Shown in pieces: positions 36,693-56,854 of a DNA stretch of 64,000 nucleotides. The notes under the pieces are model-generated. The model did not search any database. It was not told where the DNA came from and saw only the letters and a program-made list of their open reading frames with translations. The translations under genes and the position numbers were made by a program. Each line of letters opens with the position of its first letter. Within the stretch, counting starts at the first letter, position 1. Source of the stretch: Terriglobia bacterium (lineage in GTDB: Bacteria; Acidobacteriota; Terriglobia; Bryobacterales; UBA6623); NCBI GenBank assembly GCA_963824095.1, contig CAWGNS010000009.1, forward strand, positions 128,256 to 192,255. The letters run 5' to 3'.

Positions 36693-36788
36693 CTCAAAAC
36701 TCCTGAGCGGGAAAAGGTCTTACCCGCTGATGTCGCGTCTGCGCCGCGGCTGCGTCCCTTGTGCGGCGTAGCGTGACAGCCCTGCTTG

Positions 36789-36804
36789 TGCAGGCGGGGG
36801 GCCA
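36789..36804 (-). promoter_or_regulatory. Candidate sigma-54 (-24/-12) promoter for the adaptor/ATPase operon
   Basis: The minus strand reads TGGCCCCCCGCCTGCA. TGGC and TGCA have the canonical GG-to-GC register. It lies 97-112 nt upstream of the adaptor start. A sigma-54-dependent activator gene sits just upstream on the same strand. A perfect 12-bp palindrome GGCGATATCGCC lies at 36867-36878. Confidence 0.35.
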
Positions 36805-39979: not shown

Positions 39980-40208
39980 TCCTTCTCTCGGACCCTGGGG
40001 CCGGGGCGGTCTAGAGAACGCAATCCGGGGGCCGCACCCCAGTCACACCGCCTAACGTATTGTAACTCTTTGGTTTTCAGTGGATTCCTGGATCAAGGCT
40101 GTGGCTGTGGAGTGTCCGCTTTTGGGACGATGGCGGTCCCAACTCTGCGACGAGGGTTCTGGAATGGCGGTTGTGGCAATGAGCATCGGCTGCAGAGGCG
40201 GAGATCCG

Positions 40209-40495: not shown

Positions 40496-41533
40496 TCAGG
40501 GTTTCAGATGAACCTGGAAGAACTCGATCAGGGCGTCAAAGGCTTCCATCGAGAAGCCGTGGTGCCCCGGTTGCTGGTGGACGACGAAGTTGCCGGGCTT
40601 TCCGGCTTGCTCGTAGGCCGGGCGCACGATGCTCAGGAAGCGATCGACGGCGGGTTTGGGCATCGCGATGTCTTCGGTGGGCGCCCAGAGCATCAAGGGG
40701 CGGGGGGCCATGGCGGCGGCGAAATCGGCCTGGTCGCCTTTGGCGAGCATGCCGGGAATCCACCAGTAGGTCCCGTGATAGCCCAGGCTGCCCTGCTCGA
40801 TGAACAGGGCGATCGAGCCGACCCCGCCGCAGATCGGCGCCGCGGCGGCGATGCGGCTGTCGAGCAGCCAAGTATAGAAGGTCGTGATGCCGCCGAAGGA
40901 AAGGCCGGTCATGCCGATGCGGCTGGCGTCGACGTCGGGCCGCTTTTCGAGGTAGCTGAGCCCCTGGCGGATCTCGTAGAGCACGGCCCCCATTTCGGTG
41001 CGCCCCTGGACCAGCAGGGCATTGGCTTGCGCGTTGCTTTTGGGCACACGGCGGTCGAGCCCGCGCTGCGTGATCGCCAGCGCCAGGTAGCCGCGGCGGG
41101 CCAGCTCGCGCGCCCAGCCGAGCAGCCGGTCGTGCGGCTCGCTTCGGCCAGGGCCCTGCCAGGGGCCGATGACGAACTCCTTGGTCGACATCGATTCGCG
41201 GCTACCGCTGCTCCCATGCAGGCAGACCACGGCGGGCAGGCGACCAGCGGGTTTCGCCGGGCGGATCACGAATGCCGGTACGACCTCGCCGTCGAGGGAG
41301 ACCCACGAAACGTCCTCGGTGACCAGGCCTTCCTCTTCCTGCGTGCCGTGAACGGTGACCTCCACCTGGGGAGCCTCGGCCGGGATTTTCAGCAGATCGG
41401 CAAACGTGTTGCGGGCGACGGTGCTGTAGGGGGAACTCTGCGCCGGGGCAGACTGGCCGGCCGCGGTGAGCAGCAGCGCCCCGCAAATCAGGGAACGCCA
41501 AAGATTCTGACGGATGAATCGCGATTCCAACAT
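40496..41533 (-). CDS. Secreted alpha/beta-fold hydrolase (dienelactone hydrolase / acetyl-xylan-esterase-like)
   Basis: Signal-like LICGALLLTAAGQSAPA. Nucleophile elbow GLSFGG. VVCLHGSSGS and a C-terminal PGHHGF (His) context. Confidence 0.75.
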   Translation of the reverse strand: MLESRFIRQNLWRSLICGALLLTAAGQSAPAQSSPYSTVARNTFADLLKIPAEAPQVEVTVHGTQEEEGLVTEDVSWVSLDGEVVPAFVIRPAKPAGRLPAVVCLHGSSGSRESMSTKEFVIGPWQGPGRSEPHDRLLGWARELARRGYLALAITQRGLDRRVPKSNAQANALLVQGRTEMGAVLYEIRQGLSYLEKRPDVDASRIGMTGLSFGGITTFYTWLLDSRIAAAAPICGGVGSIALFIEQGSLGYHGTYWWIPGMLAKGDQADFAAAMAPRPLMLWAPTEDIAMPKPAVDRFLSIVRPAYEQAGKPGNFVVHQQPGHHGFSMEAFDALIEFFQVHLKP

Positions 41534-41572
41534 GCACCTCGCCCGTCCATTCTACTAGCGGAGGCCATACCC

Positions 41573-41895: not shown

Positions 41896-44406
41896 CTACT
41901 CGTAGCGCAGCGCGGCCATCGGATCCGTTCGCGCGGCTCGCCGCGCCGGCAAATAGGCAGCCACGGCCGCCACCAGCAGCAACACACCGGTCGCCGCCGC
42001 CATCGCCAGCGGATCGGTCGCCGAGGTCTGATAGAGCAGGCTCGCCACAAGCCGCGCCACTACGAAAGCGCCCGCCAGGCCGATCGCCACTCCGGTCGCG
42101 ACCAGCCCCAGCGACTCAATCAACACCAGGCGCAGTACGTTGGCGCTCTCGGCGCCGAGCGCCAGACGAATGCCGATCTCGCTGGTGCGGCGGCTGACGT
42201 TGTAGCTCATCAGCCCGTAGAGCCCCAGCGTCGCCAGCAGCAAAGCCAGCAGCCCGAACGCCGCGGTGAGCTGCATCATCAGACGCTGCCGGGTGAGCAC
42301 GCGATCGACGCGGTCGTCCATGGTCAGGATGTCGTTCACGGGCAGATTGGGTGCGGCCTCGGCCAGCGCCGCCCGCACTGCCGACGCGACCGCGGCAGGA
42401 TCGCCGCTCGAGCGCACTTCGAGCGAGCTGAGATACTCGGGGCGCGCGGCCACGGGCACGAACATCAGCACGTTGGGCTTCTCGCTCGCCGAACGAAAGT
42501 GCACATTGTCCACGACTCCGACGATCTCGATCGTATCCTGTGGGCCGCCGCCTGTCTTGATGCGGCCGCCGACGGCCGAACGGTTGGGGAAGAAGCGTTC
42601 CGCCAGCTTGCGGTTGACGACCGTAACCAGGGGAGCGCCGTCGCGGTCTCGATCGGTCAAACCGCGGCCGTCGAGCAGGCGCATGCCGACCGTCTCGAAG
42701 TATTGCGGCGTGACGAAGACCTGCTCCACGTCGTGGTCTTCGCCCTCGGCGTAGGTGTAGCCCTCGACATCAACCGAATTCGTGCGCGTGGAGCCCCCGA
42801 GCAGCGAATAGATCGACAGGCTGGCCGATTGCACGCCGGGGATGGCGTCGACCCGCTCGAGCACGCGCTGGTAGAGTGGCGTGAGCTGCTCGCTAGTAAA
42901 CCCGGCGCCTCGCGGATCGATGCCCGCCACCAGCACGTGCGACGTATCGAAGCCCCAATCGACGTGGCGCAGGTTCTGCAGGCTCCTCAGAAACAGGCCG
43001 GCGCCCACCAGCAGCATCAGCGACAGGGCGACCTGCGAAACCACCAGCGCGCGGTTCAGCCCGAACCGGGAGCGTTCGGCGATGCCGCCGCGGGTGTTGA
43101 CCTGCAGCGTCGGCGCAAGGTCGAAGCGGGTGGCGCGCAGCGCGGGGACCAGTCCGAACAGCAATACGGCGAGTAGCGTCAGCCCCGAGGTGAACGCCAG
43201 CACGCGCGGGTCGATGCCCGCGTCGAGAGGCAGGCGCGTGGCGTCATTCGAAGCCATGCGCAGCAGCAGCTCGAGCGCCCAACTGGCCACCAGCAGAGCG
43301 ACCAGGCCGCCGGCGGCGGCCAGCAGCAGACTCTCGGTGAGCAGTTGGCGAATCAGACGCGCTCGCCCGGCTCCCAAAGCGAGGCGAACACCAATTTCTT
43401 TGCGCCGCGCCGTGGCCCGAGCCAGCAGCAGGTTGGCGATGTTGGCGCAGGCGATCAACAGCACAACGCCCACCACGGCCATCAGCAGGATCAACGGGTC
43501 GGCGTAGCTCTCGCGCATGTTCGAGAGCCCTTGCGCGGCGGGGACGAGCGTCGCCCGCAGTTGGCGGGTTTTCTCGCGCTCCCGCTCACTCATGTTCTTA
43601 GCGGCGAGGTCGTAGATGTGGTGCTGGAAGACGACGTCCACTTCGGCGCGGGCCTGTTCGAGCGAGATGCCGGGTTTGAGGCGGCCAATCGCGCGCATCC
43701 AATAGATCTGCGCATCGTCGAGAAACGAGTTCTGGCGGGTGATCTGCGCCTGCATGGTCAGCGGCGCCCATAGGTCAGGCCGTTGGCCGACGCGCTCTCC
43801 AAAAAACTGCGCCGGGGCCACTCCCAAAATCGTGTAGTGCAGCCCATTGATGAGCAGCGTCTTGCCCGCAATCTCGGCGTCGCCTCCGAATTTTCGCTGC
43901 CAGTAGCCGTAGCTCAGCACAGCGACAGCGTCGGCGCCTGGGCTGCGGTCATCGCCCGGTTGCAGCAGGCGTCCTAGCAACGGGCGCACGCCGAGCACGT
44001 CGAAGTAGTTGCCGCTGACCAGTTCCGCCATGGCGGCCTCGGGGCTGCCGCCCGCCGAATTGGGTGAATCGCTGATGTACACCCGTGACATGGTGCTGTT
44101 GTGCGCCGCCACGCCTGCAAACGATTGCAACTCGTGTTGATAGGCGCGGAACATGGGATAAGAGACCGCGTGGTGCGTCGGCATCGTGGAGGTGGTAATG
44201 CCTTGATAGTCGCCGTCGCCGAAGTACACCAGCGCACTGGGTTTTTCGACCGGCAGCGTCTTGAGCAGAAGCGCGTCGATGAGGCTGAAGATGGCGGTGT
44301 TGGCGCCGATGCCGAGCGCCAGCGAAAGCACGGCCACGGCGGCGAAGCCCGGGTTGTGGGCCAGTGTGCGTAGCGCATAGCGCAGATCGTGCAAAAAGTC
44401 GGTCAT
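41896..44406 (-). CDS. ADOP-type duplicated FtsX/MacB-like orphan permease, tandem copy 1
   Basis: I moved the start to ATG 44406 (GGAG RBS): MTDFLHDLRYALRTLAHNPGFAAVAVLSLALGIGANTAIFS. First FtsX block ...VVLLIACANIANLLLARATARRKEIGVRLALGAGR. Second block ...SEIGIRLALGAESANVLRLVLIE. C-terminal DPMAALRYE. Confidence 0.85.
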   Translation of the reverse strand: MTDFLHDLRYALRTLAHNPGFAAVAVLSLALGIGANTAIFSLIDALLLKTLPVEKPSALVYFGDGDYQGITTSTMPTHHAVSYPMFRAYQHELQSFAGVAAHNSTMSRVYISDSPNSAGGSPEAAMAELVSGNYFDVLGVRPLLGRLLQPGDDRSPGADAVAVLSYGYWQRKFGGDAEIAGKTLLINGLHYTILGVAPAQFFGERVGQRPDLWAPLTMQAQITRQNSFLDDAQIYWMRAIGRLKPGISLEQARAEVDVVFQHHIYDLAAKNMSEREREKTRQLRATLVPAAQGLSNMRESYADPLILLMAVVGVVLLIACANIANLLLARATARRKEIGVRLALGAGRARLIRQLLTESLLLAAAGGLVALLVASWALELLLRMASNDATRLPLDAGIDPRVLAFTSGLTLLAVLLFGLVPALRATRFDLAPTLQVNTRGGIAERSRFGLNRALVVSQVALSLMLLVGAGLFLRSLQNLRHVDWGFDTSHVLVAGIDPRGAGFTSEQLTPLYQRVLERVDAIPGVQSASLSIYSLLGGSTRTNSVDVEGYTYAEGEDHDVEQVFVTPQYFETVGMRLLDGRGLTDRDRDGAPLVTVVNRKLAERFFPNRSAVGGRIKTGGGPQDTIEIVGVVDNVHFRSASEKPNVLMFVPVAARPEYLSSLEVRSSGDPAAVASAVRAALAEAAPNLPVNDILTMDDRVDRVLTRQRLMMQLTAAFGLLALLLATLGLYGLMSYNVSRRTSEIGIRLALGAESANVLRLVLIESLGLVATGVAIGLAGAFVVARLVASLLYQTSATDPLAMAAATGVLLLVAAVAAYLPARRAARTDPMAALRYE

Positions 44407-44416
44407 CGATCTCCTC

Positions 44417-44510
44417 GTGGAACAGACCATCCTGTCTGCTCAAGTAGAGACAGGCGCTCCGGCCTGTCCCCGCCACAACGCGGCGAGCACAGCACAGGCA
44501 GGATTGCCTG
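44417..44510 (-). promoter_or_regulatory. Conserved leader module, copy L2 (three hairpins) upstream of ADOP copy 1
   Basis: The minus strand reads CAGGCAATCCTGCCTGTGCT ... GGGACAGGCCGGAGCGCCTGTCTCTACTTGAGCAGACAGGATGGTCTGTTCCACGAGGAGATCGATG. The palindrome ends 9 nt before the ATG and abuts the GGAG RBS. Confidence 0.5.
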
Positions 44511-44528
44511 TACGACTAGTCATGACCA

Positions 44529-46943
44529 CTACTCATGGCGCAGCGTCACCGCGGGATCCACCGCCGCCGCCCGCCGCGCGGGCACATAACTCGCCAGCAG
44601 CGCCGCTGCCAGCAAGACAACAAAGGCCCAGGCGAAAGCCAGCGGATCGGTCGCCGTCACGGAGTAGAGCATATTCGAGATCAGGCGCGTGAGCGCCAGC
44701 GCGCCGGCCACGCCCAGCGCCAGGCCTGCACATGTCAGGCCGAGCCCACGCCGCACGAACATCGCCGTCACGTCGTGCGCGCGTGCTCCCAGCGCCAGGC
44801 GCACGCCGATTTCGCGCACGTGCGTTGCGACCGTGTAGGCGATGACCCCGTAGATGCCGATCGCGGCGAGCGCCAGCGCCAGGGCGGAAAACACGCCGAG
44901 CAGCAGCGTCTGGAAGCGGGGCTCGGCCATGGAATTCCAGACCACCTGCTCCATCGTCGAGACCTCGTAGACCGGAATGTTGGGGTCGGCTTCCGTCACC
45001 GACTGCCGCAGCACTTCCGCCATTGAATCCGGATCGGACTGGGTGCGGACCACGAACGACATCATCGGCAGGAAGAACATGCTGTCCACCTGCCGGTAGG
45101 GCAGATAGAGAGCGGGCGGCGGCTCTTCGGCGAGATTGCTTTGCGTGATGTCGCCAACGACGCCAACCACCGTCGCCCAGGGCGCGACGCCGGGTAGATC
45201 GGCGTCGAGTTGCCGCCCCACGGGATCCTGATCTTTCCAGAGAAGGTGCGCCAGTTTCTCGCTGATGATGACGGCTGGCGCGGAATCCTCGCGGTCGGCG
45301 GCGGTGAACCCGCGTCCTCGCCGCAAGGGGATCCCCATCGCGCCGAAGTAGCCGGGGCTGATGAGGATCTTGCTGGCATAGACTTCGTCGCGGCCGGAGG
45401 CGCGCGCCTGGATCGAGACCGAGCCACGCAGCAGCATCTGGCTCAACGGCCTCCAGTTGACGACCCCGGCGGTAAGGACGCCGGGCTGCGTGTTCAGCCT
45501 TTCGAGCACCGAGCTGTAGAAGGCCCTCATCTGCTGCGGCGTCCGGTAAACCGGCTGTGGCAGCGAGACGCTCATCGAAAGCACGTGGTCGGGCCGGAAG
45601 CCGGGGTCGACGTCGAGCAGGCGCGAGAAGCTGCGCAGGAGCAGAGCGGCGCCGGTCAGCAGCACCACGGCCATGGCCGTTTCGCCGACGATGAGCAGGG
45701 CGCGAAAGCGGCGCGCGCGGGTGGATCCGGTAGTCCGCGTACTTTCTTTGAGGAACGGCGCGATCTCGGCGCGGGCGGCGCGCCAGGCCGGGGCGAGGCC
45801 GAACAACAGCGCCGCGAGCAGAGAGATCAGCAGCCCGAAAGCGAAGACGCGCCAGTCGATGGCGACTTCGGCCAGCCGCGGAATCTTGTTTGCGGGGATG
45901 ATCGAGACCAACAGGGTGCTGCCCCAAAGGGCAAACAGAAAGGCGAGCGAGCCGCCTAGGAACGTCAGTACGCTGCTTTCGATCAGCAACTGGCGAGCAA
46001 GCCGCCAGCGCCCGGCGCCGAGCGCGGCGCGCACCGTGATCTCGCGCTGCCGCTGTTCACTGCGCGCCAGCGCCAGGTGCGCCACGTTGGCGCAGGCGAT
46101 CAGCAGAACGAAACCGACCGCGCCCAGAAACAGCCACAGGGCCGAACGAACCTGGCCGACGATCGAATCCTGCAGGCCGACGGCGCGCAGGCCCATGTGC
46201 GCGTTCTCGCCGCCGCTCTGCGCGGCGAACGTGGCGGCAAACGTGTCAAGCTCGGCTTGCGCCTGCTCGCTCGAGACGCTGGTTTTGCGGCGCGCGATGA
46301 CCTGCCGGAAGGCATTGTGGCGGTCGGCGCCAAGCTGCGACGGCGCCCAGATTTGCGTCGAGTTGGGAAAGCGGAACGAATCGGGCATCACGCCAACGAC
46401 CGTGAAAGGCTCGCCGTCGAGTTGCACGGTCTGGCCGACGATACCGGGGTCGGCGGCGAACTGGCCGCGCCAGAGCTCGTTGCCGATGACGGCGACGTTG
46501 GCCGGGCCCTGTGCGAAATCCTCGGCTTGGAACGCGCGCCCGAGCGCAGGAGCCAAGCCGAAGACACGGAAGAAATCTTCCGTGACCTTCATTCCCGCAA
46601 GCAACGCCGGCTCGCCCTGGCCCGTCAGTGTCGGCAGCATTCCGTTGTAGGCGGCGACGGCGTCAAACGAGCGGTTCTGATCGCGCAGTTGGGCGATATC
46701 GGGATCGAAGAACGCCCCGGCCGCCGGTGCGCCCGGCTTGCGGGTGTCGTAGGCGCCGACCATGACGAGCTGCGCGGGGTCCGGGTAAGGCAGCGGCCGC
46801 AGCAGAACGGCGTTGACGACGGTGAACATGGCGACGTTCGAGCCGATGCCAAGAGCGAGAGTCAAAACCGCGACCGCGGTGAACCCCGGATTCCGCCGCA
46901 GTTGCCGGAAGGCGAAGCGAAGGTCTTGCAGAAGGTCGTTCAT
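44529..46943 (-). CDS. ADOP-type duplicated FtsX/MacB-like orphan permease, tandem copy 2
   Basis: I moved the start to ATG 46943: MNDLLQDLRFAFRQLRRNPGFTAVAVLTLALGIGSNVAMF. FtsX blocks ...[35 protein letters not shown] and ...REIGVRLALGARAHDVTAMFVRRG. C-terminal DPAVTLRHE. Confidence 0.85.
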   Translation of the reverse strand: MNDLLQDLRFAFRQLRRNPGFTAVAVLTLALGIGSNVAMFTVVNAVLLRPLPYPDPAQLVMVGAYDTRKPGAPAAGAFFDPDIAQLRDQNRSFDAVAAYNGMLPTLTGQGEPALLAGMKVTEDFFRVFGLAPALGRAFQAEDFAQGPANVAVIGNELWRGQFAADPGIVGQTVQLDGEPFTVVGVMPDSFRFPNSTQIWAPSQLGADRHNAFRQVIARRKTSVSSEQAQAELDTFAATFAAQSGGENAHMGLRAVGLQDSIVGQVRSALWLFLGAVGFVLLIACANVAHLALARSEQRQREITVRAALGAGRWRLARQLLIESSVLTFLGGSLAFLFALWGSTLLVSIIPANKIPRLAEVAIDWRVFAFGLLISLLAALLFGLAPAWRAARAEIAPFLKESTRTTGSTRARRFRALLIVGETAMAVVLLTGAALLLRSFSRLLDVDPGFRPDHVLSMSVSLPQPVYRTPQQMRAFYSSVLERLNTQPGVLTAGVVNWRPLSQMLLRGSVSIQARASGRDEVYASKILISPGYFGAMGIPLRRGRGFTAADREDSAPAVIISEKLAHLLWKDQDPVGRQLDADLPGVAPWATVVGVVGDITQSNLAEEPPPALYLPYRQVDSMFFLPMMSFVVRTQSDPDSMAEVLRQSVTEADPNIPVYEVSTMEQVVWNSMAEPRFQTLLLGVFSALALALAAIGIYGVIAYTVATHVREIGVRLALGARAHDVTAMFVRRGLGLTCAGLALGVAGALALTRLISNMLYSVTATDPLAFAWAFVVLLAAALLASYVPARRAAAVDPAVTLRHE

Positions 46944-46953
46944 GTTGATTTCC

Positions 46954-46978
46954 GTGGAACAGACAATTCTGTCTGTTC
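46954..46978 (-). promoter_or_regulatory. Conserved leader module, copy L3 upstream of ADOP copy 2
   Basis: The minus strand reads GAACAGACAGAATTGTCTGTTCCACGGAAATCAACATG. The stem is 9 bp and ends 9 nt before the ATG. It occupies most of the 58-nt intergenic gap. Confidence 0.5.
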
Positions 46979-47001
46979 GGCTAGAGACGAGGCCGTGCCG
47001 G

Positions 47002-49413
47002 CTATTCGTGGCGCAACGCCACCATCGGGTCGACTCTGCTGGCACGGCGGGCGGGGAGATATACAGCCAAAAAACCGGCCGTGCTAAGCAAAACCGACAC
47101 CGCCGCGAACGTCAGCGGATCCAGCGGCGAAACCGCAACGAGTTGACTCGCGATCAAACGCGTCAACACCGCCGAGCCTGCCAACCCAACTACCAAACCG
47201 AAGGCGATCAGCTTCGTGCCTTCGCGGAGGAACAAGCGCACCACCTCGCTACTCTCGGCCCCCAACGCCAAACGCAAGCCGATCTCCTGGCTGCGCTGGC
47301 GCACTCCGTGGGCCACTGACCCGAAAATCCCGAGCAGCGCCAGCAGCAGAGCGATCGACGCAAGAACCCCGAGCAACCAGGCCCGAAAGCGCCTTACCAC
47401 AACGGCTATGTCTTGCCAGTAGGCTCGTTCCATCTGTCGCGTCGTCACGGGGTAGCGGGGCTCGACCTTCAACATCGCGGCGCGTACCGAGCGAGCCACT
47501 TGTTCGGGCGGTGCGAGGCACGTGACGATGAACTGCACGCTGGAATCGGGGTTCTGCAAAAACGGCGTATAGATCGTGGGGCGGACCCGGAGGTCCCTGC
47601 TTACCGACCTGGTGTCAGCGGCTACGCCGATCACCCGATACGCGGTGGACTTCTCGCGGTCCTGCTCAAATACCTGCAACGTCTTCCCGACGGCCGGCTC
47701 GCCGGGCCACACGCCCCGCGCCAAGGTCTCATTCACTATGGCGACGTTGGGCGAACCTTGGTCATCCCGATCCTCAAAGGGCAGGCCGGCGATCAAGGGG
47801 ATTTCCAACACCTGGAAAAAATTGGGGCTGACGGAGGTGACATAGGCGCGTTCGGCACTCTTCGCCCGGCCTTCATCAGCGAAAGAGCGAAGGTTATGCG
47901 CGTCGGGCAGCGGCAGGTACGAAGCTACAGCGACGGCGCCGACCGCGGGGAGGCGGCCGATTTGCTCGAGGCCCTCGCGATAGTATGTACGCTGTTTTTC
48001 CGGAGATTGGTACTCCCGCCAGGCGTATTCGGCGCGGCTAACGATCTTCTGCGAGGGATCGAAGCCCAGATCAACCGGCCGCGTCAACCAGAAGGTTCGA
48101 AGCAGCAAACCCGCGCCGACCAGCAGCACCATCGACAACGCGAATTCGCTGATAATCATGACGCCGCGAAAGCGACGAAACCGGCGATCGGCTGAGCCTA
48201 CGATGCCGGTTCGCGACAACATGGAACGCAAGGGCTGAACCACCAGAGCCAGAGCCGGCCCAAGTCCGAAGACGACGGCGGTCATCAAAGAGACGCCCAG
48301 CGTGAACAGAGCCACCCTCGGATCGATGGCAACCTGATCCAGGCGCGGAGTGTTCCCGGGAGCCAACCGCACGACGACCGGCAAAGCCCACCAAGCCATT
48401 AAAAGACCGAGGGAGCCTCCCGCGACCGCCAGCAGAACGCTTTCCGCGAGCAGTTGCCGGATGAGTCGAAGGGCCCTTGCGCCAAGGGCCGCCCGGACCG
48501 CGATTTCGCTCTGACGGGCGGGGACGCGAGCGAGCAGGAGATGGGCAAGATTGGCGCACGCCAGCAACAGAACGAAGCTCACCGCCCCCAATAGAAACAG
48601 CATGTCGTCGCGCTGCCCTCCGATCAGATCATCGAGAACGGTTGACGATAGGACGCGCGAGCCGGAACGTATTGCGAGGCTTGGCAAGCGTGCGGGCAGC
48701 GTTGCCAGGTAGGCTTGCACTTCCTCGGAGGAACGACCCGGGGCGACTCGAGCCATGACATTCAGCCCATAGTCCCATTCGCGAAACACGTTGCTCGTCT
48801 CGAGAGGGGCCCAGAGTTCGATCTTGGGTCCCCAGGTGTGCGGCCCCTGGAAGTTCGGCGGGAGAATCCCGATGATCGAGTAGGTCCCTTCGGCCAGATG
48901 AAGGACGCGACCCAAGGCTCTCGGATCACCGCCCAGGCGGTTTTGCCAGAAGCCGTAGCTGACGACCGCGGCGGGCGAGGCGCCAGGCTGGGCATCCACA
49001 GGAAGAAAGGCCCGGCCCGCGAAGGGGAGGACTCCCAACAGATCGAAGAAATTCGTCGTGACGAGACTACCCGAAATCCAGACAGGACCTTCCTCAGTTT
49101 GAAGCACGCCACCGCCCCCGCTCATGAAGGCGGCAACGTTCTCGAATAAGCCAGGCTGTTGTTTGAGGGCGTTGAAATCGGCAAGTTTAAAGCTATCGGT
49201 CCGGGCCTCTCCTTGCCGCTGAAATTCCAATAGCAGCAGACGGTCGGGGTCGCGATACGGCAGCGGGCGAAAGACAACCGTGTCAACGATGCTGAAAACT
49301 AGCGTCGTTGAACCAATGCCGAGGGCGAGCACAAAGATAGCCACCAGGCTGAAACCCGGAGTTCGCCCGAGCATCCGCAGGCCGTAGCGAAAATCCCGCA
49401 GCAAATCGTACAT
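47002..49413 (-). CDS. ADOP-type duplicated FtsX/MacB-like orphan permease, tandem copy 3
   Basis: ATG 49413 gives MYDLLRDFRYGLRMLGRTPGFSLVAIFVLALGIGSTTLVF, matching the paralog N-termini. GTG 49425, 3 nt after the upstream stop, is an alternative. FtsX blocks ...LLLACANLAHLLLARVPARQSEIAVRAALGAR and ...QEIGLRLALGAESSEVVRLFLREG. C-terminal DPMVALRHE. Confidence 0.85.
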   Translation of the reverse strand: MYDLLRDFRYGLRMLGRTPGFSLVAIFVLALGIGSTTLVFSIVDTVVFRPLPYRDPDRLLLLEFQRQGEARTDSFKLADFNALKQQPGLFENVAAFMSGGGGVLQTEEGPVWISGSLVTTNFFDLLGVLPFAGRAFLPVDAQPGASPAAVVSYGFWQNRLGGDPRALGRVLHLAEGTYSIIGILPPNFQGPHTWGPKIELWAPLETSNVFREWDYGLNVMARVAPGRSSEEVQAYLATLPARLPSLAIRSGSRVLSSTVLDDLIGGQRDDMLFLLGAVSFVLLLACANLAHLLLARVPARQSEIAVRAALGARALRLIRQLLAESVLLAVAGGSLGLLMAWWALPVVVRLAPGNTPRLDQVAIDPRVALFTLGVSLMTAVVFGLGPALALVVQPLRSMLSRTGIVGSADRRFRRFRGVMIISEFALSMVLLVGAGLLLRTFWLTRPVDLGFDPSQKIVSRAEYAWREYQSPEKQRTYYREGLEQIGRLPAVGAVAVASYLPLPDAHNLRSFADEGRAKSAERAYVTSVSPNFFQVLEIPLIAGLPFEDRDDQGSPNVAIVNETLARGVWPGEPAVGKTLQVFEQDREKSTAYRVIGVAADTRSVSRDLRVRPTIYTPFLQNPDSSVQFIVTCLAPPEQVARSVRAAMLKVEPRYPVTTRQMERAYWQDIAVVVRRFRAWLLGVLASIALLLALLGIFGSVAHGVRQRSQEIGLRLALGAESSEVVRLFLREGTKLIAFGLVVGLAGSAVLTRLIASQLVAVSPLDPLTFAAVSVLLSTAGFLAVYLPARRASRVDPMVALRHE

Positions 49414-49428
49414 GTTCCGAGGCACCGC

Positions 49429-51954
49429 CTACTCGTAGCGCAGCGCCACCATCGGATTCACCCGCGCAGCGCGCCGGGCCGGAAGGTACGCCGCCAGGGC
49501 GGCTACGCCCAGCAACACCGCTGCCGCCAGCGTGAACGCCAGCGGATCGGTTGGCGAGGTGTCGTAAAGCAGGTTCGCCAACAGCCGGGTACTCGCGAAC
49601 GCCGCGACCAGGCCGGCCGCCGCGCCGATGACCACCAGCAGCAGCGATTCGCGCAGAACCATCCACAACACCGAGCGCTGCTCGGCGCCCAGCGCCATGC
49701 GAATGCCGATTTCGCTGGTGCGGCGCGAGACCGCGTAACTCATCACGCCGAACAGCCCGATCGAGGCCAGCAGCAGCGCCAGCAGGCCGAAGAACGTCGT
49801 CAGGTTGGTCATCAGGCGTTCCTGCTGCAGCGCGCGGTCGACTTGCGCGTCCATGGTGATCACCGAGCGCACCGGCAGATTGCGGTCGACTTCGGCCAGG
49901 GCCTGCTTGACCTCGCCCGTCAAGGCCGTCGTGTCGCCCCGCGTGCGAATCTCGAGCGACTGCAGCATCTGGGGCTCTTGATACACCGGCAGGAATGCCA
50001 GTTCCGGCTCTTCCTCGCGCATATCGTTGTACTTGGCATCGCGAGCAACGCCGACGATTTCGATGTTGGTTGTCTTGCCGTCGAAGCCGATGTGGCCCCC
50101 CAGGGCCGAGCGGCCCGCAAAGTAGCGCTCGGCGAACTTCTGGTTCACGATGGCTACCGGTGCGCCGCCGGTGCGGTCGTGTTCGTCGAACACGCGTCCC
50201 TCGGCCAGCGTCATGCCCACGGTTTCGAAATAGCCCGGCGTCACATGCATTTGCCTCACGTTGCTCGGCTCGTCTTTGCCGGGCGTATAGCCTTCCACCT
50301 GCGCGCTCGAACTGCGCCGCGCGCCGCTCAACAGCGGCATGAACGACACGCTCGCCGACTCGACCCCGGGAATCGCCTGCATGCGGTCGCGGATCTTGCG
50401 ATAAAGCTCAGTCAGCCGCTCGGGCTTCTCTTCCGAGTAGCCGGCGCCGCGCGGATCGATGCCGACCAACAGGAGTTTTTCGGGCCGGAAGCCGAGGTTC
50501 AGACTGCGCAGGTTTCGCAGGCTGCCGACGAAGAGTCCGGCGCCCACCAGCAGCAGCAGCGACAGCGCCACCTGGGTCACCACCAGCCCTTTGCTGAGCG
50601 TGAAGCGCGAGGTCTCGCCGATGGTGCCGCGCGATTGAACCTTGAGCGTGGGAGCGAGATCGAGCCGCGTGGCGCGCAGTGCCGGCGCCAGTCCGAACAG
50701 CAGGCCGGTGAGCACCGATATCGCCAAGGTGAAGCCGAGCACGCGCGCATCGGGATCGAGGTTGAGCGGGATCGTCTCCGCGCTGGCGTACACCATGCGC
50801 ACCAGGAACTGTGTCGCCCAAGGCGCGATCAACAAGCCGGCCAGGCCGCCGGCGCCGGCGAGCAGCAGACTTTCGGTCAACAACTGCCGCACCAGCCGCC
50901 CGCGGCTGGCGCCCAGGGCGAGCCGCACACCGACTTCCTTGCGGCGTCCCGCGGCGCGCGCCAGCAGCAGGTTGGCGACGTTGGCGCAGGCGATCAGCAA
51001 CACCAGCCCGACCACGCCCATCAGCAGGAACAAGGGTTGTTCATAGTTGCGGCGCAGCGACGAAAGAGCCTGCTGGGCCGGAACGATTTCGACGTGCCGC
51101 TGCGCAAGCCTGCGTTCCCGGTCGGGCGAGAGTTCACCGCCCGCTTCGGCGCGCAACGCCTGCTGGAACTCGAGGGTCATCGCCGCGCTGGCCTGCTTGA
51201 CCGTGACGCCCGGTTTCAAGCGGCCCAGCAACAGCAGGAACGACACCTTACGATCATTGAGCATCGGCCCAAAACGCGAGATTTCCTGCTGCATCGCCAG
51301 CGGAGCGAAGATGTCGGCATCTTGGCCGACCGTTTCGCCCCGAAAACCCTTCGGAGCCACTCCAAGGACCGAGTAGGCCTGCCCGTTGAGGAGCAGGCTC
51401 CTGCCAACGATCGAAGGATCGGAAGCGAATCGCCGTTGCCAGTAACCATGCGTCAACACCACCACCGGATGCGCTCCGGCGGTGACATCGTCGGGGGGAT
51501 GGATGAGCCGCCCCAGGAGCGGCTGAATCCCCAAAACATCGAAGTAGTTGCCGCTGACCACGCGCGCGTTGGCCGCCTCCGGCTGCGCATCCGGACGCGC
51601 CGCGCTGTCGCGCATGTAGACGGTGTGGTCCATGCTATCGATGGCGGCCAGACTCTGAAAGATTGCGTTGCCGTCCCGCAGGTCTTTGTAGAGCGGGTAG
51701 GAATACAGCACGGTCGACCGATTGACCGGGTCGTCTTCGCCGTTGATGCCGCGGCCCATTCCTTGTCCGAAGACAGCCAGTTCCTGCGGATCTTTGACGG
51801 GCAGCATTTTGAGCACGACGGCGTCGAGCAGCGTGAAGATGGCGGTGTTGGCGCCGATGCCGAGCGCCAGCGAGAGCACGGCGACGGCGGTGAAGCCGGG
51901 GTTGTTGCGGAACATCCGCAGCGCGTAACGCAGGTCTCCGAAAAGGTAGCTCAT
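49429..51954 (-). CDS. ADOP-type duplicated FtsX/MacB-like orphan permease, tandem copy 4
   Basis: I moved the start to ATG 51954 (GGAG RBS): MSYLFGDLRYALRMFRNNPGFTAVAVLSLALGIGANTAIFT. FtsX blocks ...LVLLIACANVANLLLARAAGRRKEVGVRLALGASR and ...SEIGIRMALGAEQRSVLWMVLRES. C-terminal NPMVALRYE. Confidence 0.85.
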   Translation of the reverse strand: MSYLFGDLRYALRMFRNNPGFTAVAVLSLALGIGANTAIFTLLDAVVLKMLPVKDPQELAVFGQGMGRGINGEDDPVNRSTVLYSYPLYKDLRDGNAIFQSLAAIDSMDHTVYMRDSAARPDAQPEAANARVVSGNYFDVLGIQPLLGRLIHPPDDVTAGAHPVVVLTHGYWQRRFASDPSIVGRSLLLNGQAYSVLGVAPKGFRGETVGQDADIFAPLAMQQEISRFGPMLNDRKVSFLLLLGRLKPGVTVKQASAAMTLEFQQALRAEAGGELSPDRERRLAQRHVEIVPAQQALSSLRRNYEQPLFLLMGVVGLVLLIACANVANLLLARAAGRRKEVGVRLALGASRGRLVRQLLTESLLLAGAGGLAGLLIAPWATQFLVRMVYASAETIPLNLDPDARVLGFTLAISVLTGLLFGLAPALRATRLDLAPTLKVQSRGTIGETSRFTLSKGLVVTQVALSLLLLVGAGLFVGSLRNLRSLNLGFRPEKLLLVGIDPRGAGYSEEKPERLTELYRKIRDRMQAIPGVESASVSFMPLLSGARRSSSAQVEGYTPGKDEPSNVRQMHVTPGYFETVGMTLAEGRVFDEHDRTGGAPVAIVNQKFAERYFAGRSALGGHIGFDGKTTNIEIVGVARDAKYNDMREEEPELAFLPVYQEPQMLQSLEIRTRGDTTALTGEVKQALAEVDRNLPVRSVITMDAQVDRALQQERLMTNLTTFFGLLALLLASIGLFGVMSYAVSRRTSEIGIRMALGAEQRSVLWMVLRESLLLVVIGAAAGLVAAFASTRLLANLLYDTSPTDPLAFTLAAAVLLGVAALAAYLPARRAARVNPMVALRYE

Positions 51955-51989
51955 GCTTTCGCTCCTGGAACGAACCGCTGCCCACGACC

Positions 51990-52017
51990 GTGGGATAGAC
52001 AATCCTGTCTGGTCCCA
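51990..52017 (-). promoter_or_regulatory. Conserved leader module, diverged copy L4 upstream of ADOP copy 4
   Basis: The minus strand reads GGGACCAGACAGGATTGTCTATCCCACGG. It has the same CAGACAGGATTGTCT core and ends 35 nt before ATG 51954. Confidence 0.4.
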
Positions 52018-52406
52018 CTAGGGACCGGCAATTCCGCTGGTCGCCCGCCGGGTCAGCCGTGGGCAGGCCACGCTCACTGCCTCCGCTCGAAAGATCCTCA
52101 CGGATATGCACCTCGGATGCCGCACCCGATCGGTTCGTAAATCTAGGAATCTAAAGGAGAAAGAGGGGGCGCTGGCCGTCCGCTTCTGGGAAAGTGTGTC
52201 TCGGAACCGGGATCGGGGCGCGGGGAAGCGCCGTACGTGGGTAGCAATTCGGGAAACGACTCGCTGCCGCCGCCGGGGCCGGCGTGGCATGCGGCCCGCA
52301 CCACCTCCGGTGCGGACCTTTCGCCGGGCTTGTAGCTCTGTTGCCCGGCCCGCGGCGTGGATGTCCGGGCCGTAAGAAATGCGCCGTAAGAAATCAGTTG
52401 GCGGAA

Positions 52407-53633
52407 CTACTCGGTTTGCTCCGCGGTATGCTCCCCGGCATCGTGCACGGTGACCTCGGCGCCATCTTTGAGATCGTTGCTGGGATGGACCACGACCTGG
52501 TCGCCCTCGTTGAGTCCGGAAACCACCTCGGCGGTCAATCCGCTGCGGTGGCCAACCTCAACCACGCGCCGCGCCGCCTTGCCTTCCGCAATCACGAAAA
52601 CAGCCCAGCCGTCGCCGTGGCGAAACAAGGCGCTGGCGGGAACCTGCAGCACGTTCTGGCCTTCCCAGAGAATGAAAACCGCCTCGACGCGATAGCCGTC
52701 GCCGAGCCGTTCCCACTGCTCGTGGGGTGAAGTGAAGTCGGCGATGACCAGGACGCGCTGCTCTTCGACGCCCAGAGCCGACACCTTGGTAAACCCGAAC
52801 GGCTCAACGGTGCGCACGATGCCTTCGAGGGGCTGGTCGCCGCCCCAACGCTCGAACAACACGCGCGTGCCGGGGGCGATGCGCACGGCGTCGGATGAAA
52901 GCACTTCGATCTGCACTTCAAGCGTACGCGGGCTCCCCATCTCGAGCAGCGATTCGCCGGCGTTGACCACGCCCTCACTTTCGCGAAAGCGCTTCAGGAC
53001 GCGCCCCGCGGTCGGCGCCCGCACCTCGACAAGCTCCGCCGGCGCCGTGTGGCTCGCCGCCGTGAAGTTCTTCAAAGCGACCCGCGCGGCTTCCAGTTCG
53101 CGCTCGGCCACGGTGACGTTGGCCTGCGAGGTTTCGAGGTTGGCCTTGGTGCGGCGGGCTTCGGTCTCGGCCCGATCGAGCTGTTCGCGGGGAATGGTCC
53201 CGGCGTCATAGAGCGATTGCAGGCGCGCCAGCTCTGATTCGGCAAAGCGCGCGTCCTCGGCGGCGACGCGCGTCGATTCCTGCGACGCTTGCAGCGAAGC
53301 CTGTGCCGTCTCGATGCGTGCTTCGGCCTCGGCGCGGCTGCGCGGGTCGAGCGCGCTTGAGCGCAGCGGCTCCAGGCGCGCCACGATCTGCCCGCCGCGC
53401 ACGCTATCGCCGACCTCGAGCGCTATCCGCTGCAGAAAGCCGCTCACTGGCGCCGAAATCACGTAGCGGTCGACCACCCGCGTCTTGCCTTCCTCGCGCA
53501 CGGTGACGCGCAGCAGCCCACGGGTCACCGGGGCGGCGTCGACGAGCACTGGCTGCGGCAGAAAGCCGTAGCCGATCGCCATTACGACGACAATCAGTGC
53601 GATGATCCAGCCGATTTTTCTGCGCCACTTCAT
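52407..53633 (-). CDS. Periplasmic adaptor subunit (HlyD/MacA family)
   Basis: N-terminal anchor IGWIIALIVVVMAIGYGFL. Central coiled coil (EAEARIETAQASLQAS...LETSQANVTVAERELEAARVAL) is flanked by beta-barrel segments. The start lies 6 nt after the permease stop. Confidence 0.8.
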   Translation of the reverse strand: MKWRRKIGWIIALIVVVMAIGYGFLPQPVLVDAAPVTRGLLRVTVREEGKTRVVDRYVISAPVSGFLQRIALEVGDSVRGGQIVARLEPLRSSALDPRSRAEAEARIETAQASLQASQESTRVAAEDARFAESELARLQSLYDAGTIPREQLDRAETEARRTKANLETSQANVTVAERELEAARVALKNFTAASHTAPAELVEVRAPTAGRVLKRFRESEGVVNAGESLLEMGSPRTLEVQIEVLSSDAVRIAPGTRVLFERWGGDQPLEGIVRTVEPFGFTKVSALGVEEQRVLVIADFTSPHEQWERLGDGYRVEAVFILWEGQNVLQVPASALFRHGDGWAVFVIAEGKAARRVVEVGHRSGLTAEVVSGLNEGDQVVVHPSNDLKDGAEVTVHDAGEHTAEQTE

Positions 53634-53639
53634 GCGTAT

Positions 53640-56003: not shown

Positions 56004-56010
56004 CGGGAAG

Positions 56011-56748: not shown

Positions 56749-56854
56749 GATGGGGCGGGGCAGGGAAGCGAGGTCGCGGCCGGCCCGGCTGTGGAATCCC
56801 GGGGCTGGCGCATGGATGTTCACCGCCGGCCCCATGCTTCTGATTGTCGCGCAG

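Follow-up and report, generated by a model that had tools for sequence, protein, structure and literature searches.

An array of duplicated 'orphan' permeases as candidate membrane subunits of an inducible MacAB-like ABC system

Here, we propose that four clustered genes of the 'acidobacterial duplicated orphan permease' (ADOP) family each supply one of several alternative membrane subunits to a single inducible, MacAB-like ABC system of type VII, a reading to which, going by the sequence, we assign a probability of roughly 60%. The proposal builds on family, predicted fold, gene order, orthology, common motifs and conservation pattern, as seen in a 64-kb stretch of DNA (hereafter the window) and in related loci. 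Rather than orphans, the permeases of the array are probably envelope pumps powered by ATP.

The array encodes four ADOP-family permeases

The array consists of the following genes:

41896..44406, minus strand: ADOP1, 836 aa
44529..46943, minus strand: ADOP2, 804 aa
47002..49425, minus strand: ADOP3, 803 aa (ATG 49413) or 807 aa (GTG 49425)
49429..51954, minus strand: ADOP4, 841 aa, which opens the array and is its conserved anchor copy

All four consecutive minus-strand genes that the first-pass annotation had placed at 41896-51954 were found, in the tandem same-strand arrangement it described. Its choice of family also holds, with every gene above the NCBIfam TIGR03434 cutoff of 622.3 bits that we used as the threshold for ADOP membership (ADOP1 945, ADOP2 948, ADOP3 803 and ADOP4 967 bits). 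Two MacB_PCD and two FtsX domains were detected by Pfam in each of the four, in agreement with the duplicated unit of extracytoplasmic domain plus FtsX that had been claimed, and both terminal motifs (N-terminal M-x-DL-x-DLRYALR...NPGF...LALGIG and C-terminal (D/N)P-x-x-(A/T)LR(Y/H)E) are present with small variations. The lineage restriction attributed to the family is outdated, as Bacteroidota also carry ADOP paralogs (PMC3914696, PMC11573002). Large paralog sets and clustered copies are likewise already known for this family (PMC3914696, PMC11573002).

ADOP3 follows ADOP4 after 3 nt if it begins at the GTG and after 15 nt if it begins at the ATG; the other gaps are 58 and 122 nt, all matching the sizes first given. 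The hairpins said to fill the two longer gaps are present: both gaps fold more stably than shuffled sequences (z = -2.0 and -2.8), and the 3' flank of ADOP1 folds very strongly by the same comparison (z = -5.8). No T-run terminator tail was found at any array hairpin. A REP-like palindrome recurs in the region:

51989..52010, minus strand: REP-like palindrome AGACAGGATTGTCTATCCCACG, within the ADOP4 leader
46953-46974, 44416-44437 and 41572-41593: further copies

These four copies compare with 0.02 expected. The palindrome family occurs on at least 120 metagenome contigs, with none of the metagenome copies just upstream of an ADOP start.

The predicted fold matches ATPase-dependent transporter subunits

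Each ADOP forms a pseudo-dimer within one chain: its eight transmembrane helices (4+4) are accompanied by two MacB-type domains in the periplasm and two coupling helices on the cytoplasmic side. The best PDB match of the AF2 model of ADOP4 (pLDDT 84.8) is YbbP (9ge6_A), followed by MacB, LolC/E and BceB, and all structural matches at E <= 1e-7 are either ATPase-dependent type VII transporters or isolated periplasmic domains of MacB-type permeases. As modelled, the ADOP fold is thus that of an ATPase-dependent transporter subunit. Per-column conservation in an alignment of 12 paralogs reaches 0.77 and 0.82 in coupling helices 1 and 2 and 0.80 in the C-terminal tail, as against only 0.47 and 0.51 in the periplasmic domains. 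The tail aligns to the C-terminus of MacB, for which a review describes a minor coupling helix (PMC5985334). The best-conserved ADOP segments are therefore the predicted regions of ATPase contact.

ATPase and adaptor genes lie near ADOP genes here and beside them in other genomes

Within 7 kb of the array, on the same strand, lie three MacB/LolD-type ATPase genes, two genes for membrane-fusion proteins (MFPs, periplasmic adaptors) and one sigma-54 two-component system, which the earlier reading had overlooked. All three ATPases belong to the MacB/LolD/FtsE/DarD class. Two of the ATPase genes, of the MacB type, and one MFP gene are found 6.7 kb downstream of the array, with the two-component system in between:

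33576..34277, minus strand: ATPase-b, MacB/DarD-type (NCBIfam)
34459..35148, minus strand: ATPase-a, MacB/LolD/DarD-type, 229 aa from ATG 35148 (NCBIfam and PDB matches)
35433..36692, minus strand: MFP, MacA/DarC-like (Pfam and NCBIfam), one N-terminal hydrophobic segment
37127..38435, minus strand: histidine kinase (NCBIfam kinase matches for 37127-38092)
38624..39979, minus strand: sigma-54-dependent response regulator (Pfam: receiver, AAA+ sigma-54 interaction, Fis-type HTH)

ATPase-a, whose longest open reading frame starts at 35178, has intact Walker A/B, signature and H-loop motifs by eye and is about 45% identical to ATPase-b. The MFP-ATPase operon (33576-36692) has no permease gene of its own, a state shared with L133, a 90% relative, and is followed by a PP2C phosphatase gene on the opposite strand. 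No outer-membrane channel or TolC-like gene is present within the window.

MFP orthologues of constant length (57-69% identity) occur on many contigs. At each of four distant loci retrieved through the MFP (L129-L132; MFP identity 59-67%), ATPase genes lie directly beside or between ADOP genes:

L129 and L132: MFP-ADOPx3-ATPase-ADOP
L130: MFP-ATPase-ADOP-ATPase-ADOP-ADOP-ADOP
L131: MFP-ATPase-ADOP

The complete permeases of these loci all pass the TIGR03434 cutoff (10 of 10, 781-997 bits). Between the window and L129 and L130, identity is 60-67% for the MFP and 78-79% for the ATPases: ATPase-a is 79% identical to the ADOP-adjoining ATPases of both loci, and ATPase-b 78% identical to ATPase233 of L130, which is flanked by ADOP genes. 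The MFP family hence travels with ADOPs, from which it does not follow that most ADOPs travel with an MFP. L131 encodes just one ATPase, and a PadR gene stands where the two-component system would be; neither a second ATPase nor sigma-54 control is therefore universal.

The first-pass annotation had considered the permeases orphans with no known energy coupling. This is contradicted by the ATPases and MFP 6.7 kb downstream with their common control motifs, and by four other genomes in which orthologues of these proteins are encoded right beside genuine ADOP genes. The orphan label of the family fails both here and in these four related operons, where MacB-type ATPase and MFP genes adjoin. A dedicated ATPase in a conserved pair, which the annotation had named as evidence against itself, is approached by gene order and motifs, from which we infer the ADOP-ATPase pairing itself.

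Array, regulator and MFP-ATPase operon share putative control signals

Three intergenic copies of a motif, TYCCARAANCGGACR, are found in the window, upstream of the array, of the regulator gene and of the MFP gene (3 against 0.25 expected in 64 kb; 0 of 100 shuffles reach 3). Each is followed after 56-79 nt by a GG-N10-GC box:

52177..52191, minus strand: upstream activator-like motif TCCCAGAAGCGGACG, ahead of the array
52106..52121, minus strand: sigma-54-like -24/-12 element GGCATCCGAGGTGCAT (GG-N10-GC), 152 nt before the ADOP4 start
40113..40127, minus strand: upstream activator-like motif TCCCAAAAGCGGACA, ahead of the response-regulator gene
40019..40034, minus strand: sigma-54-like -24/-12 element CGGCCCCCGGATTGCG, about 40 nt before the regulator start codon
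36878..36892, minus strand: upstream activator-like motif TCCCAAAATCGGACG, ahead of the MFP-ATPase operon
36788..36803, minus strand: sigma-54-like -24/-12 element GGCCCCCCGCCTGCAC, 96 nt before the MFP start

Both motif and box are found again at the orthologous sites of L003, L004 and L133, and the motif only in L129. Ahead of ADOP4 orthologues, TCCCAGAAGCGGACG is conserved in L003 and L004, with GGCATCCGAGGTGCAT at an identical offset from it in all three sequences. The TCCCAAAAGCGGACA-type motif also precedes the regulator gene in L003 and ADOP799-RR in L133, where counterparts of CGGCCCCCGGATTGCG read TGGCCCTCGGATTGCT and TGGCTACTGGATTGCT, respectively. The TCCCAAAATCGGACG-type motif likewise precedes the MFP orthologues of L129 and L133, the L133 sequence aligned to GGCCCCCCGCCTGCAC being TGGAAGCGCGACTGCA. 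In L133, motif and box stand ahead of a different ADOP paralog that fills the array slot. A plain sigma-54 consensus search of the window gave 23 matches against 28 expected, hence no enrichment; the putative boxes are weak consensus matches, and it is their position and conservation that speak for them. The two-component system appears to act through similar putative promoters on three transcription units: the array, its own two genes and the operon of MFP and ATPases.

Orthologues of the response regulator (64-94%) lie beside the MFP in L129, L130 and L133. The histidine kinase has two hydrophobic segments about 8 residues apart (by eye) and a +1 frameshift near 38091, as seen by site comparison and by tblastn with the intact L133 kinase, whose alignment to the window falls into two frames. 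In L003 the kinase is annotated as two separate genes. Assembly errors may lie behind both breaks, or else the regulatory arm may be impaired.

A working model and related transporters

From these observations we infer physical pairing, sigma-54 control, a direction of transport and a class of substrate, as follows. The MFP and two different ATPases encoded downstream (35433-36692, 34459-35148 and 33576-34277) would form the engine, and the response regulator and nearly loop-less kinase encoded between array and engine would exert control. Upon induction, the ATPase-a/ATPase-b pair would dock onto both coupling helices of whichever ADOP is produced. ATP binding would zip the helices together and mechanotransmission would squeeze the periplasmic domains, so that substrate is pushed from the periplasm or outer leaflet into the MFP and then outward. 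Fast-diverging periplasmic domains and turnover of ADOP genes could give rise to differing substrate specificities, our best guess at substrates being antimicrobial or hydrophobic envelope-damaging compounds. Counting against the model, the ADOPs and ATPases of the window belong to different transcription units with three genes between them, the kinase is frameshifted, the sigma-54-like boxes are weak and an outer-membrane channel gene is missing from the window.

ADOPs share with MacAB-TolC, a type VII mechanotransmission system, FtsX units of four helices in which a periplasmic domain is inserted between TM1 and TM2 and a major coupling helix links TM2 to TM3, together with the conserved C-terminal tail, and the locus has a MacA-like adaptor and MacB-class ATPases. 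They differ in having permease units fused in one chain, separate ATPases of two kinds, several alternative permeases per adaptor/ATPase set and no TolC-like gene in the window. Escherichia coli YbbAP-TesA (PDB 9GE6-9GE8; PMC12646458), the top full-length structural match of ADOP4, is likewise built on a double permease, pseudo-symmetric and made as one chain, that has two periplasmic domains and two coupling helices and works with separate ATPase subunits. However, YbbP, with its two linker helices, has 10 transmembrane helices, whereas ADOPs have 8 and a direct cytoplasmic linker; YbbAP uses two copies of one ATPase; and for ADOPs the hydrolase partnership is not conserved and an MFP is present at the locus.

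As in BceAB-BceRS, a type VII transporter stands beside a two-component system (PMC9169098 for Bce) whose kinase has two membrane segments. Because there is almost no extracytoplasmic loop, the analogy hints, speculatively, at sensing through the transporter. In contrast to Bce, the regulator here is a sigma-54 activator, an MFP is present, and ADOPs have two periplasmic domains and 8 helices where BceB has one domain and 10 helices (PMC5985334). DarD of the darobactin exporter DarBCD is the closest named NCBIfam match of ATPase-a and ATPase-b, which at 259 and 245 bits fall short of the cutoff. Weak matches link the MFP, over its full length, to DarC and the ADOPs to DarB, a permease model of 777 aa; a third ATPase, ATPase-c, best matches DevA of the heterocyst glycolipid exporter DevBCA. 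All these scores are far under the equivalog cutoffs, and no darobactin-type precursor peptide or radical-SAM gene was found among the proteins scanned.

Alternative readings

The ADOPs might instead be true orphans that work without an ATPase (e.g. as proton-driven exporters, receptors or scaffolds), the nearby MFP-ATPase operon being a coincidence in a transporter-rich region. The original TIGRFAM text reportedly has ADOP genes essentially never adjoining ATPase genes, which counts in favour of this view. So does the name 'duplicated orphan permease' (PMC3914696, PMC11573002), together with the lack of an ATPase gene on ADOP-bearing contigs retrieved other than through the MFP (mostly short, only L001 and L072 reaching 12-15 kb) and next to the PadR-ADOP pairs of L129 and L133. 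In L004 (a 70% relative), the flanks of the array that were covered (950 nt on the upstream side, about 2.3 kb on the downstream side) contain no two-component system, MFP or ATPase gene. We nonetheless consider true orphans unlikely, since the conservation of coupling helices and tail is hard to explain without ATPase docking, and the structural matches, the four MFP-orthologue loci and the upstream motif common to array and ATPase operon all argue against them. A different engine is offered by the operon upstream of the array:

52407..56835, minus strand: self-contained operon of ATPase-c (56011-56835), a double-FtsX permease (53640-56003, 787 aa) and an MFP (52407-53633)

ATPase-c is likewise of the MacB/LolD class and its operon, an immediate neighbour on one strand here and in L003, could form one long ATPase-permease-MFP-ADOPx4 operon with the array. 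We find this very doubtful: its three genes, packed with 6-7 nt gaps, already make a complete set; the 452-nt gap before ADOP4 has its own conserved motif and sigma-54-like box, and the ATPase-c operon itself lacks the shared upstream motif; it is absent upstream of the arrays of L004 and L133, where the neighbour is a TPR protein and a PadR-ADOP pair, respectively; and no ATPase-c orthologue occurs in the ADOP operons examined, with 39-41% identity to their ATPases.

Two further readings concern the array's origin and its neighbours. The first-pass annotation saw local amplification, and recent tandem duplication of one gene into redundant copies would suit the head-to-tail order on one strand, the similar lengths, the common terminal motifs and the mutual closeness of ADOP1 and ADOP4 within the window. 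It is hardly tenable. Pairwise identities are 34-55%, and the mutually closest paralogs within the window, ADOP1 and ADOP4 (54.5%; every other pair 34-37%), are not adjacent. ADOP4, ADOP2 and ADOP1 all have nearer orthologues on other contigs, at 94% in L003 (70% in L004), 81% in L003 and 77% in the second position of the L004 array, respectively. ADOP3 has no orthologue in L003 (a 94% relative) and a GC3 of 0.73 against 0.84-0.88 in its neighbours; compositionally atypical, it is probably a recent acquisition. Array content differs wholly among relatives with 90-97% identical flanking genes, the slot in L003, L004 and L133 being filled by unrelated paralogs. Therefore, the neighbours are old paralogs, gained and lost, as distant as the annotation itself had said would tell against amplification. 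Recent amplification is ruled out, and an ancient duplication of the ADOP1/ADOP4 lineage is possible. The annotation also had the permeases working with hydrolases, and both genes it named (MBL-fold, 29494-30126, and alpha/beta) are present, the second directly downstream of ADOP1:

40496..41533, minus strand: alpha/beta hydrolase (Abhydrolase_7/DLH, Pfam), signal-peptide-like N-terminus (by eye)

Sharpened into a YbbAP-TesA-like complex, this idea draws on YbbP as top structural match, on the periplasmic hydrolase TesA as partner of YbbAP (PMC12646458), on a thioesterase in a Psychroflexus ADOP island (PMC3914696), on a secreted-looking hydrolase after the array in the window, L003 and L004, and on a leader element common to hydrolase and ADOP genes. 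That element is a generic REP-like repeat. The hydrolase adjoins ADOPs only in L003 and L004 and not in L125-L128 or L133, whose slot holds an ADOP without a hydrolase; its orthologues at 64-70% are found in three unrelated settings, away from any ADOP gene, and none of the four L129-L132 operons includes such a hydrolase. The cooperation is thus very unlikely, and the hydrolase is probably a passenger.

A solo copy and a relic

Two further ADOP-like sequences lie in the window:

27018..29426, minus strand: solo divergent ADOP-like permease, between MBL and GFO/IDH genes
63548..63811, minus strand: ADOP relic of 88 codons (TM2, coupling helix, start of TM3)

The solo copy, claimed as a fifth divergent member, exists and has the matching architecture, but at 484 bits it falls below the TIGR03434 cutoff, and it is 26-29% identical to the array copies. 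It is absent from the MBL-GFO interval of L133, so its claimed association with the MBL-fold gene is not borne out there. The fragment first placed at 63542-63903 is real but shorter, matching only positions 287-374 of a custom ADOP profile (hmmsearch of a six-frame translation).

Permease array and candidate ATPase partners

We propose that the four permeases encoded at 41896-51954, described in the first-pass annotation as orphans, do have candidate ATPases close by. This is based on two MacB-type ATPase genes lying 6.7 kb downstream on the same strand, having upstream motifs in common with the array, and having orthologues that adjoin ADOP genes. Together with the adaptor (membrane-fusion protein, MFP) encoded beside them, both ATPases can be named as candidate partners, a genomic pairing that we infer from class, synteny and common motifs. 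Orphan status does not hold at this locus, but it comes from the name of the family and plays no part in the HMM; the array sequences therefore stay ADOP members.

The permease genes themselves are as previously called: four consecutive, head-to-tail, minus-strand open reading frames (836, 804, 803/807 and 841 codons) with intergenic gaps of 3-15, 58 and 122 nt, all carrying the expected N- and C-terminal motifs. They are designated ADOP1 to ADOP4 in order of increasing coordinate, so that transcription, on the minus strand, runs from ADOP4 to ADOP1. Assignment to the ADOP family is upheld by the curated HMM (NCBIfam TIGR03434, whole-protein cutoff 622.3 bits), against which ADOP1 to ADOP4 score 945, 948, 803 and 967 bits, and the internal duplication of each chain is seen as two stretches of PF12704 (MacB_PCD) and two of PF02687 (FtsX). 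The supposed fifth member, a solo copy (27018-29426), shares this architecture yet falls under the cutoff at 484 bits; it is 26-29% identical to the array copies. The reported fragment is a genuine relic, but of only 88 codons (63548-63811), covering TM2, the coupling helix and the start of TM3. It adjoins a ceramidase-like gene (61942-63579), and the surrounding reading frame is otherwise without ADOP similarity.

Genes flanking the array
56011-56835, minus strand, ATPase-c, in a compact upstream operon (52407-56835)
53640-56003, minus strand, 787-aa double-FtsX permease, same operon, between ATPase-c and the MFP gene
52407-53633, minus strand, upstream MFP, same operon
38624-39979, minus strand, sigma-54-dependent response regulator (RR) with AAA+ sigma-54 interaction domain
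37127-38435, minus strand, histidine kinase (HK)
35433-36692, minus strand, downstream MFP
34459-35148, minus strand, ATPase-a
33576-34277, minus strand, ATPase-b

After ADOP1 the order is hydrolase, RR, HK, MFP and the two ATPases, followed by a PP2C gene on the opposite strand. All three ATPases belong to the MacB/LolD/FtsE/DarD class; ATPase-a and ATPase-b are about 45% identical, with catalytic motifs intact by eye. Their operon (MFP-ATPase-ATPase) is without a permease gene, a state shared by the related contig L133. The window proteins scanned include an MFP, which is conserved together with ADOP operons; no TolC-like outer-membrane channel was found among them. At the position that we take to be the D-loop, ATPase-b reads GNLH where ATPase-a reads GNLD, which hints at an asymmetric ATPase pair. 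In the upstream operon, the 787-aa permease has 8 predicted helices, no Pfam MacB_PCD match and weak matches to LolC, LolF and ADOP only; the counterpart of its MFP in the related contig L003 is called as a truncated 285-aa protein.

Read by eye, the HK sequence contains a pair of hydrophobic segments, at about residues 7-28 and 37-54, with roughly 8 residues between them. Relative to an intact 435-aa orthologue in L133, it carries a +1 frameshift near 38091 (38085-38095; ...acgcttgctgcgcacc... in the window, ...acgctgctccgcaac... in L133), and the L003 gene calls likewise split it into two reading frames. This is either true pseudogenisation or an assembly error.

Synteny with ADOP genes

Orthologues of the downstream MFP, at 57-69% identity and of constant length, occur on many contigs. 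Four such loci, selected through the MFP (59-67% identity), were examined.

Gene order at the four MFP-selected loci
L130: RR-HK-MFP-ATPase-ADOP-ATPase-ADOP-ADOP-ADOP
L129: RR ... HK-MFP-ADOP-ADOP-ADOP-ATPase-ADOP
L132: MFP-ADOP-ADOP-ADOP-ATPase-ADOP
L131: PadR ... MFP-ATPase-ADOP (single ATPase; PadR gene instead of a two-component system)

ATPase-a is 79% identical to ATPases of L129 and L130 and ATPase-b 78% identical to the second ATPase of L130, and identity is 64-75% for the RR and 57-69% for the HK; ATPase genes stand beside ADOP genes in L131 and L132 as well. The ADOPs of the four loci are 31-44% identical to the window copies, and all ten complete ones score above the TIGR03434 cutoff (781-997 bits). 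On these gene orders and scores, this MFP/ATPase set has bona fide ADOP genes as its operon partners. Judged by gene order, the window reads as a rearranged version, with the permeases in a unit of their own just upstream of the two-component genes. The MFP family travels with ADOPs at these four MFP-selected loci, which do not address the share of all ADOPs that do so. ADOP-bearing contigs found by other routes are few and mostly short, making ATPase adjacency hard to judge; within the short flanks around the array of the related contig L004 there are no genes of the engine (our term for MFP, ATPase-a and ATPase-b).

Shared upstream motif

The window contains three copies of the motif TYCCARAANCGGACR (candidate regulator sites also written TCCCARAANCGGAC), where 0.25 would be expected, and 0 of 100 shuffles reach three. 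All copies are intergenic and on the minus strand, each followed after 56-79 nt by a GG-N10-GC box.

Motif copies and associated boxes
52177-52191, minus strand, motif before ADOP4; box at 52106-52121, minus strand
40113-40127, minus strand, motif before the RR gene; box at 40019-40034, minus strand
36878-36892, minus strand, motif before the MFP gene; box at 36788-36803, minus strand

The motif recurs before the ADOP4 orthologues of L003 and L004, before the RR gene of L003, before the MFP gene of L129 and L133, and before the unrelated ADOP that occupies the array slot in L133; the solo copy is without it. Conservation of the motif extends to every relative that carries it, and that of the box to L003, L004 and L133. 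The window boxes are imperfect matches to the -24/-12 consensus, and the best versions in relatives (TGGCTACTGGATTGCT, TGGCCCTCGGATTGCT) are near the sigma-54 consensus. A plain sigma-54 consensus search of the window is not enriched (23 matches vs 28 expected); what singled out the candidate boxes was solely their conservation and their constant spacing from the common motif. Matches to sigma-70 promoters and intrinsic terminators in the array are at chance level, with none inside the gaps. From this arrangement we infer a single sigma-54 regulon of three units, which the adjacent activator would drive.

In L003, a 62-codon reading frame (19489-19677) between the sigma-54-like promoter and the RR gene reads by eye as an ADOP N-terminus (MNGLIQDLIYGIWMLARSPG...LALGIG). 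This frame appears to be left over from an ADOP gene, which in L133 still holds that position (ADOP799).

Divergence and turnover of the permeases

The array had been explained by local amplification. Pairs of array copies are 34-37% identical, except ADOP1/ADOP4 at 54.5%, and amplification is not recent. A protein search with ADOP4 returned a 100% identical protein on record and orthologues down to 70%. In L003 the array consists of ADOP4 (94%), ADOP2 (81%), another paralog (45-47%) and the hydrolase, with neither ADOP3 nor an ADOP1 orthologue; in L004 it consists of ADOP4 (70%), ADOP1 (77%), two other paralogs and the hydrolase. Flanking genes in L133 are 90-97% identical to those of the window, and the corresponding site there holds one ADOP alone, which reaches just 37-38% identity with the window copies; a hydrolase gene is absent. 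The GC3 of ADOP3 (47002-49425) is 0.73 vs 0.84-0.88 in every other gene checked, and this copy was apparently inserted recently, perhaps by horizontal transfer. These array contents and the GC3 of ADOP3 mark the site as a hot spot for the gain and loss of old, divergent ADOP paralogs.

Permease fold and conservation

Hydropathy gives eight hydrophobic helices in a 4+4 pattern, in agreement with the secondary structure of an AlphaFold2 model of ADOP4 (64-sequence alignment as input; pLDDT 84.8, pTM 0.76). In the model, TM4 (403-429) leads into TM5 (452-483) through a short, low-confidence cytoplasmic linker, so that the four-helix units are joined directly. Structural comparison of the model yielded E. 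coli YbbP as the best full-length PDB match (Foldseek, E = 5e-22), followed by MacB, the pneumococcal Spr0694-0695 permease, LolE/C, BceB, YtrF and HrtB, with E values of up to about 1e-7. YbbP is a single-chain double permease of ten helices that engages two ATPase subunits via two coupling helices (PMC12646458); two of its helices are linkers between the units, whereas ADOP has eight helices and no linker helices.

Pfam and Foldseek both show a trait expected of type VII (MacB-type) membrane subunits, an FtsX unit of four helices whose TM1 and TM2 are separated by a periplasmic domain. The ADOP segment ...SEIGIRMALGAEQ... aligns with MacB ...KEIGVRMAIGARQ..., the major coupling helix between TM2 and TM3 (position in MacB from PMC5985334). 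Of the two ADOP coupling helices, the second aligns to its MacB counterpart. The C-terminal "minor coupling helix" of MacB also contacts the ATPase (PMC5985334). Across 12 paralogs, column conservation is highest in the coupling helices (0.77 and 0.82), the C-terminal tail (0.80) and the N-terminal helix plus TM1 (0.73), and lowest in the periplasmic domains (0.47, 0.51). When distant window copies are compared, identity is 24-29% over the periplasmic parts vs 43-49% over the membrane and cytoplasmic parts. This pattern fits continued ATPase docking while the periplasmic faces diversify.

Hydrolase neighbours

MBL-fold and alpha/beta hydrolase genes are both present as annotated, and a working partnership with the permeases had been suggested. 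The alpha/beta hydrolase has a signal-peptide-like N-terminus (by eye) and adjoins ADOPs in the window, L003 and L004 only, being absent from L133 and L129-L132. The partnership is not borne out by its orthologues, which at 64-70% identity occur in three unrelated contexts without ADOP genes. A hydrolase complex of the YbbAP-TesA type was rejected on synteny, there being no conserved pairing of the double permease with a periplasmic hydrolase across these loci. The solo copy sits between the MBL-fold and GFO/IDH genes, and these are direct neighbours in L133, where the solo copy is absent from the interval, so it is an insertion (or was lost in L133).

Proposed mechanism and significance

Induction via the two-component system would yield the ADOP set along with the MFP and both ATPases. 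An ATPase pair would then dock on an ADOP at its two coupling helices, which differ from each other, and ATP-driven mechanotransmission, as in MacAB (PMC5985334), would shift a periplasmic or outer-leaflet substrate into the MFP. Variable periplasmic domains and gene turnover point to diverse substrates, possibly antimicrobial or hydrophobic compounds. MacAB is the closest system in this proposed working mode, with the ADOP system being built on a YbbP-like fused permease. Its points of difference are the eight helices, the two ATPase types, the choice of several permeases for each engine and the putative sigma-54 control. The HK resembles Bce-type kinases, which sense through their transporter (PMC9169098), in its two membrane segments and tiny external loop, a parallel that is only suggestive.

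Our broadest reading, to which we tentatively give a probability of about 0.3, is that one fixed engine would serve an ADOP repertoire that is rapidly swapped at a genomic hot spot, is partly horizontally acquired and takes in the PadR-linked "orphans" found across the genome, as a modular envelope defence with exchangeable specificity modules. This engine would comprise an ATPase-a/ATPase-b heterodimer and one MFP, under sigma-54 two-component control with a kinase sensing through the transporter. If one engine does serve the whole repertoire, this would account for ADOPs looking orphaned. The locus gives a testable answer on the energy source (two named ATPases and a periplasmic adaptor), proposes a circuit (sigma-54 activator, near-loopless kinase, common upstream motif, three promoters) and presents an evolutionary pattern in which the engine is conserved, the periplasmic domains diverge fast and genes turn over at a single site. 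Were interchangeable fused permeases to share one ATPase pair and adaptor, annotation and study of these abundant soil-bacterial genes would change.

Text searches of the literature returned no paper giving ADOPs a function or energy source, and nothing linking them to ATPases, sigma-54, the type VII ABC class, partners or regulation; nor did they return a shared ATPase pair and adaptor for several fused permeases in the MacB superfamily. One study, on Psychroflexus, notes that ATP-binding transporter genes and a thioesterase accompany an ADOP cluster, and does not analyse their function (PMC3914696).

Intergenic palindromes and distribution

The longer gaps (58 and 122 nt), for which the first-pass annotation noted hairpins, and the 3' flank of ADOP1 form stable hairpins (z = -2.0, -2.8 and -5.8); none of these array-gap or 3'-flank hairpins has a T-run. 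Four copies of the 22-mer AGACAGGATTGTCTGTTCCACG are present in the window (0.02 expected); they precede the start codons of ADOP4, ADOP2, ADOP1 and the hydrolase gene by 10-39 nt.

Copies of the 22-mer and related hairpins
51989-52010, 22-mer
46953-46974, 22-mer
44416-44437, 22-mer
41572-41593, 22-mer
44494-44511, related hairpin
44449-44468, related hairpin
41828-41845, related hairpin
41798-41817, related hairpin
2361-2380, related hairpin

The palindrome family (stem ACAGRCA/TGYCTGT, loop GGAT or ATCC, plus the GACAGGCGCTCCCGCCTGTC type) is strongly clustered in the ADOP gaps, and roughly reverse-complementary hairpins lie 3' of the ADOP2 and ADOP1 stop codons. ADOP3 follows immediately on the ADOP4 stop codon, lacks the hairpins usual here and is missing from the 94% relative L003. 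The 22-mer was considered as an ADOP-specific RNA leader, and variants that keep its pairing occur in L004. Rfam gave no match for the hairpins, and a degenerate-pattern metagenome scan found the palindromes on at least 120 soil and peat contigs in unrelated contexts, with 0 of 122 occurrences directly before an ADOP start. This rejects the leader, and the palindrome is therefore a generic REP-like repeat, locally enriched here. An integron-like cassette array with palindromic junctions was likewise rejected, there being no integrase among the proteins scanned and the palindromes being generic repeats. The palindromes may stabilise transcript segments, and in ADOP arrays the copy ending CCACGG(A/G)G lies 9-10 nt ahead of start codons, where it may provide the ribosome-binding site.

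Named ADOP homologues come from Terriglobia, Bryobacterales and Blastocatellia, and paralogs have been reported in Bacteroidota (PMC3914696; PMC11573002). The paralog families can be very large, two Dyadobacter genomes being reported to have 28-33 copies (PMC11573002). The contig L001, which bears the label of an uncultured Actinomycetota MAG, carries an ADOP gene preceded by the exact 22-nt palindrome (11196-11217), and the 42 nt that lead up to and span its start codon are identical to those of the third ADOP of L003; this may reflect a wrong bin assignment or a transferred segment.
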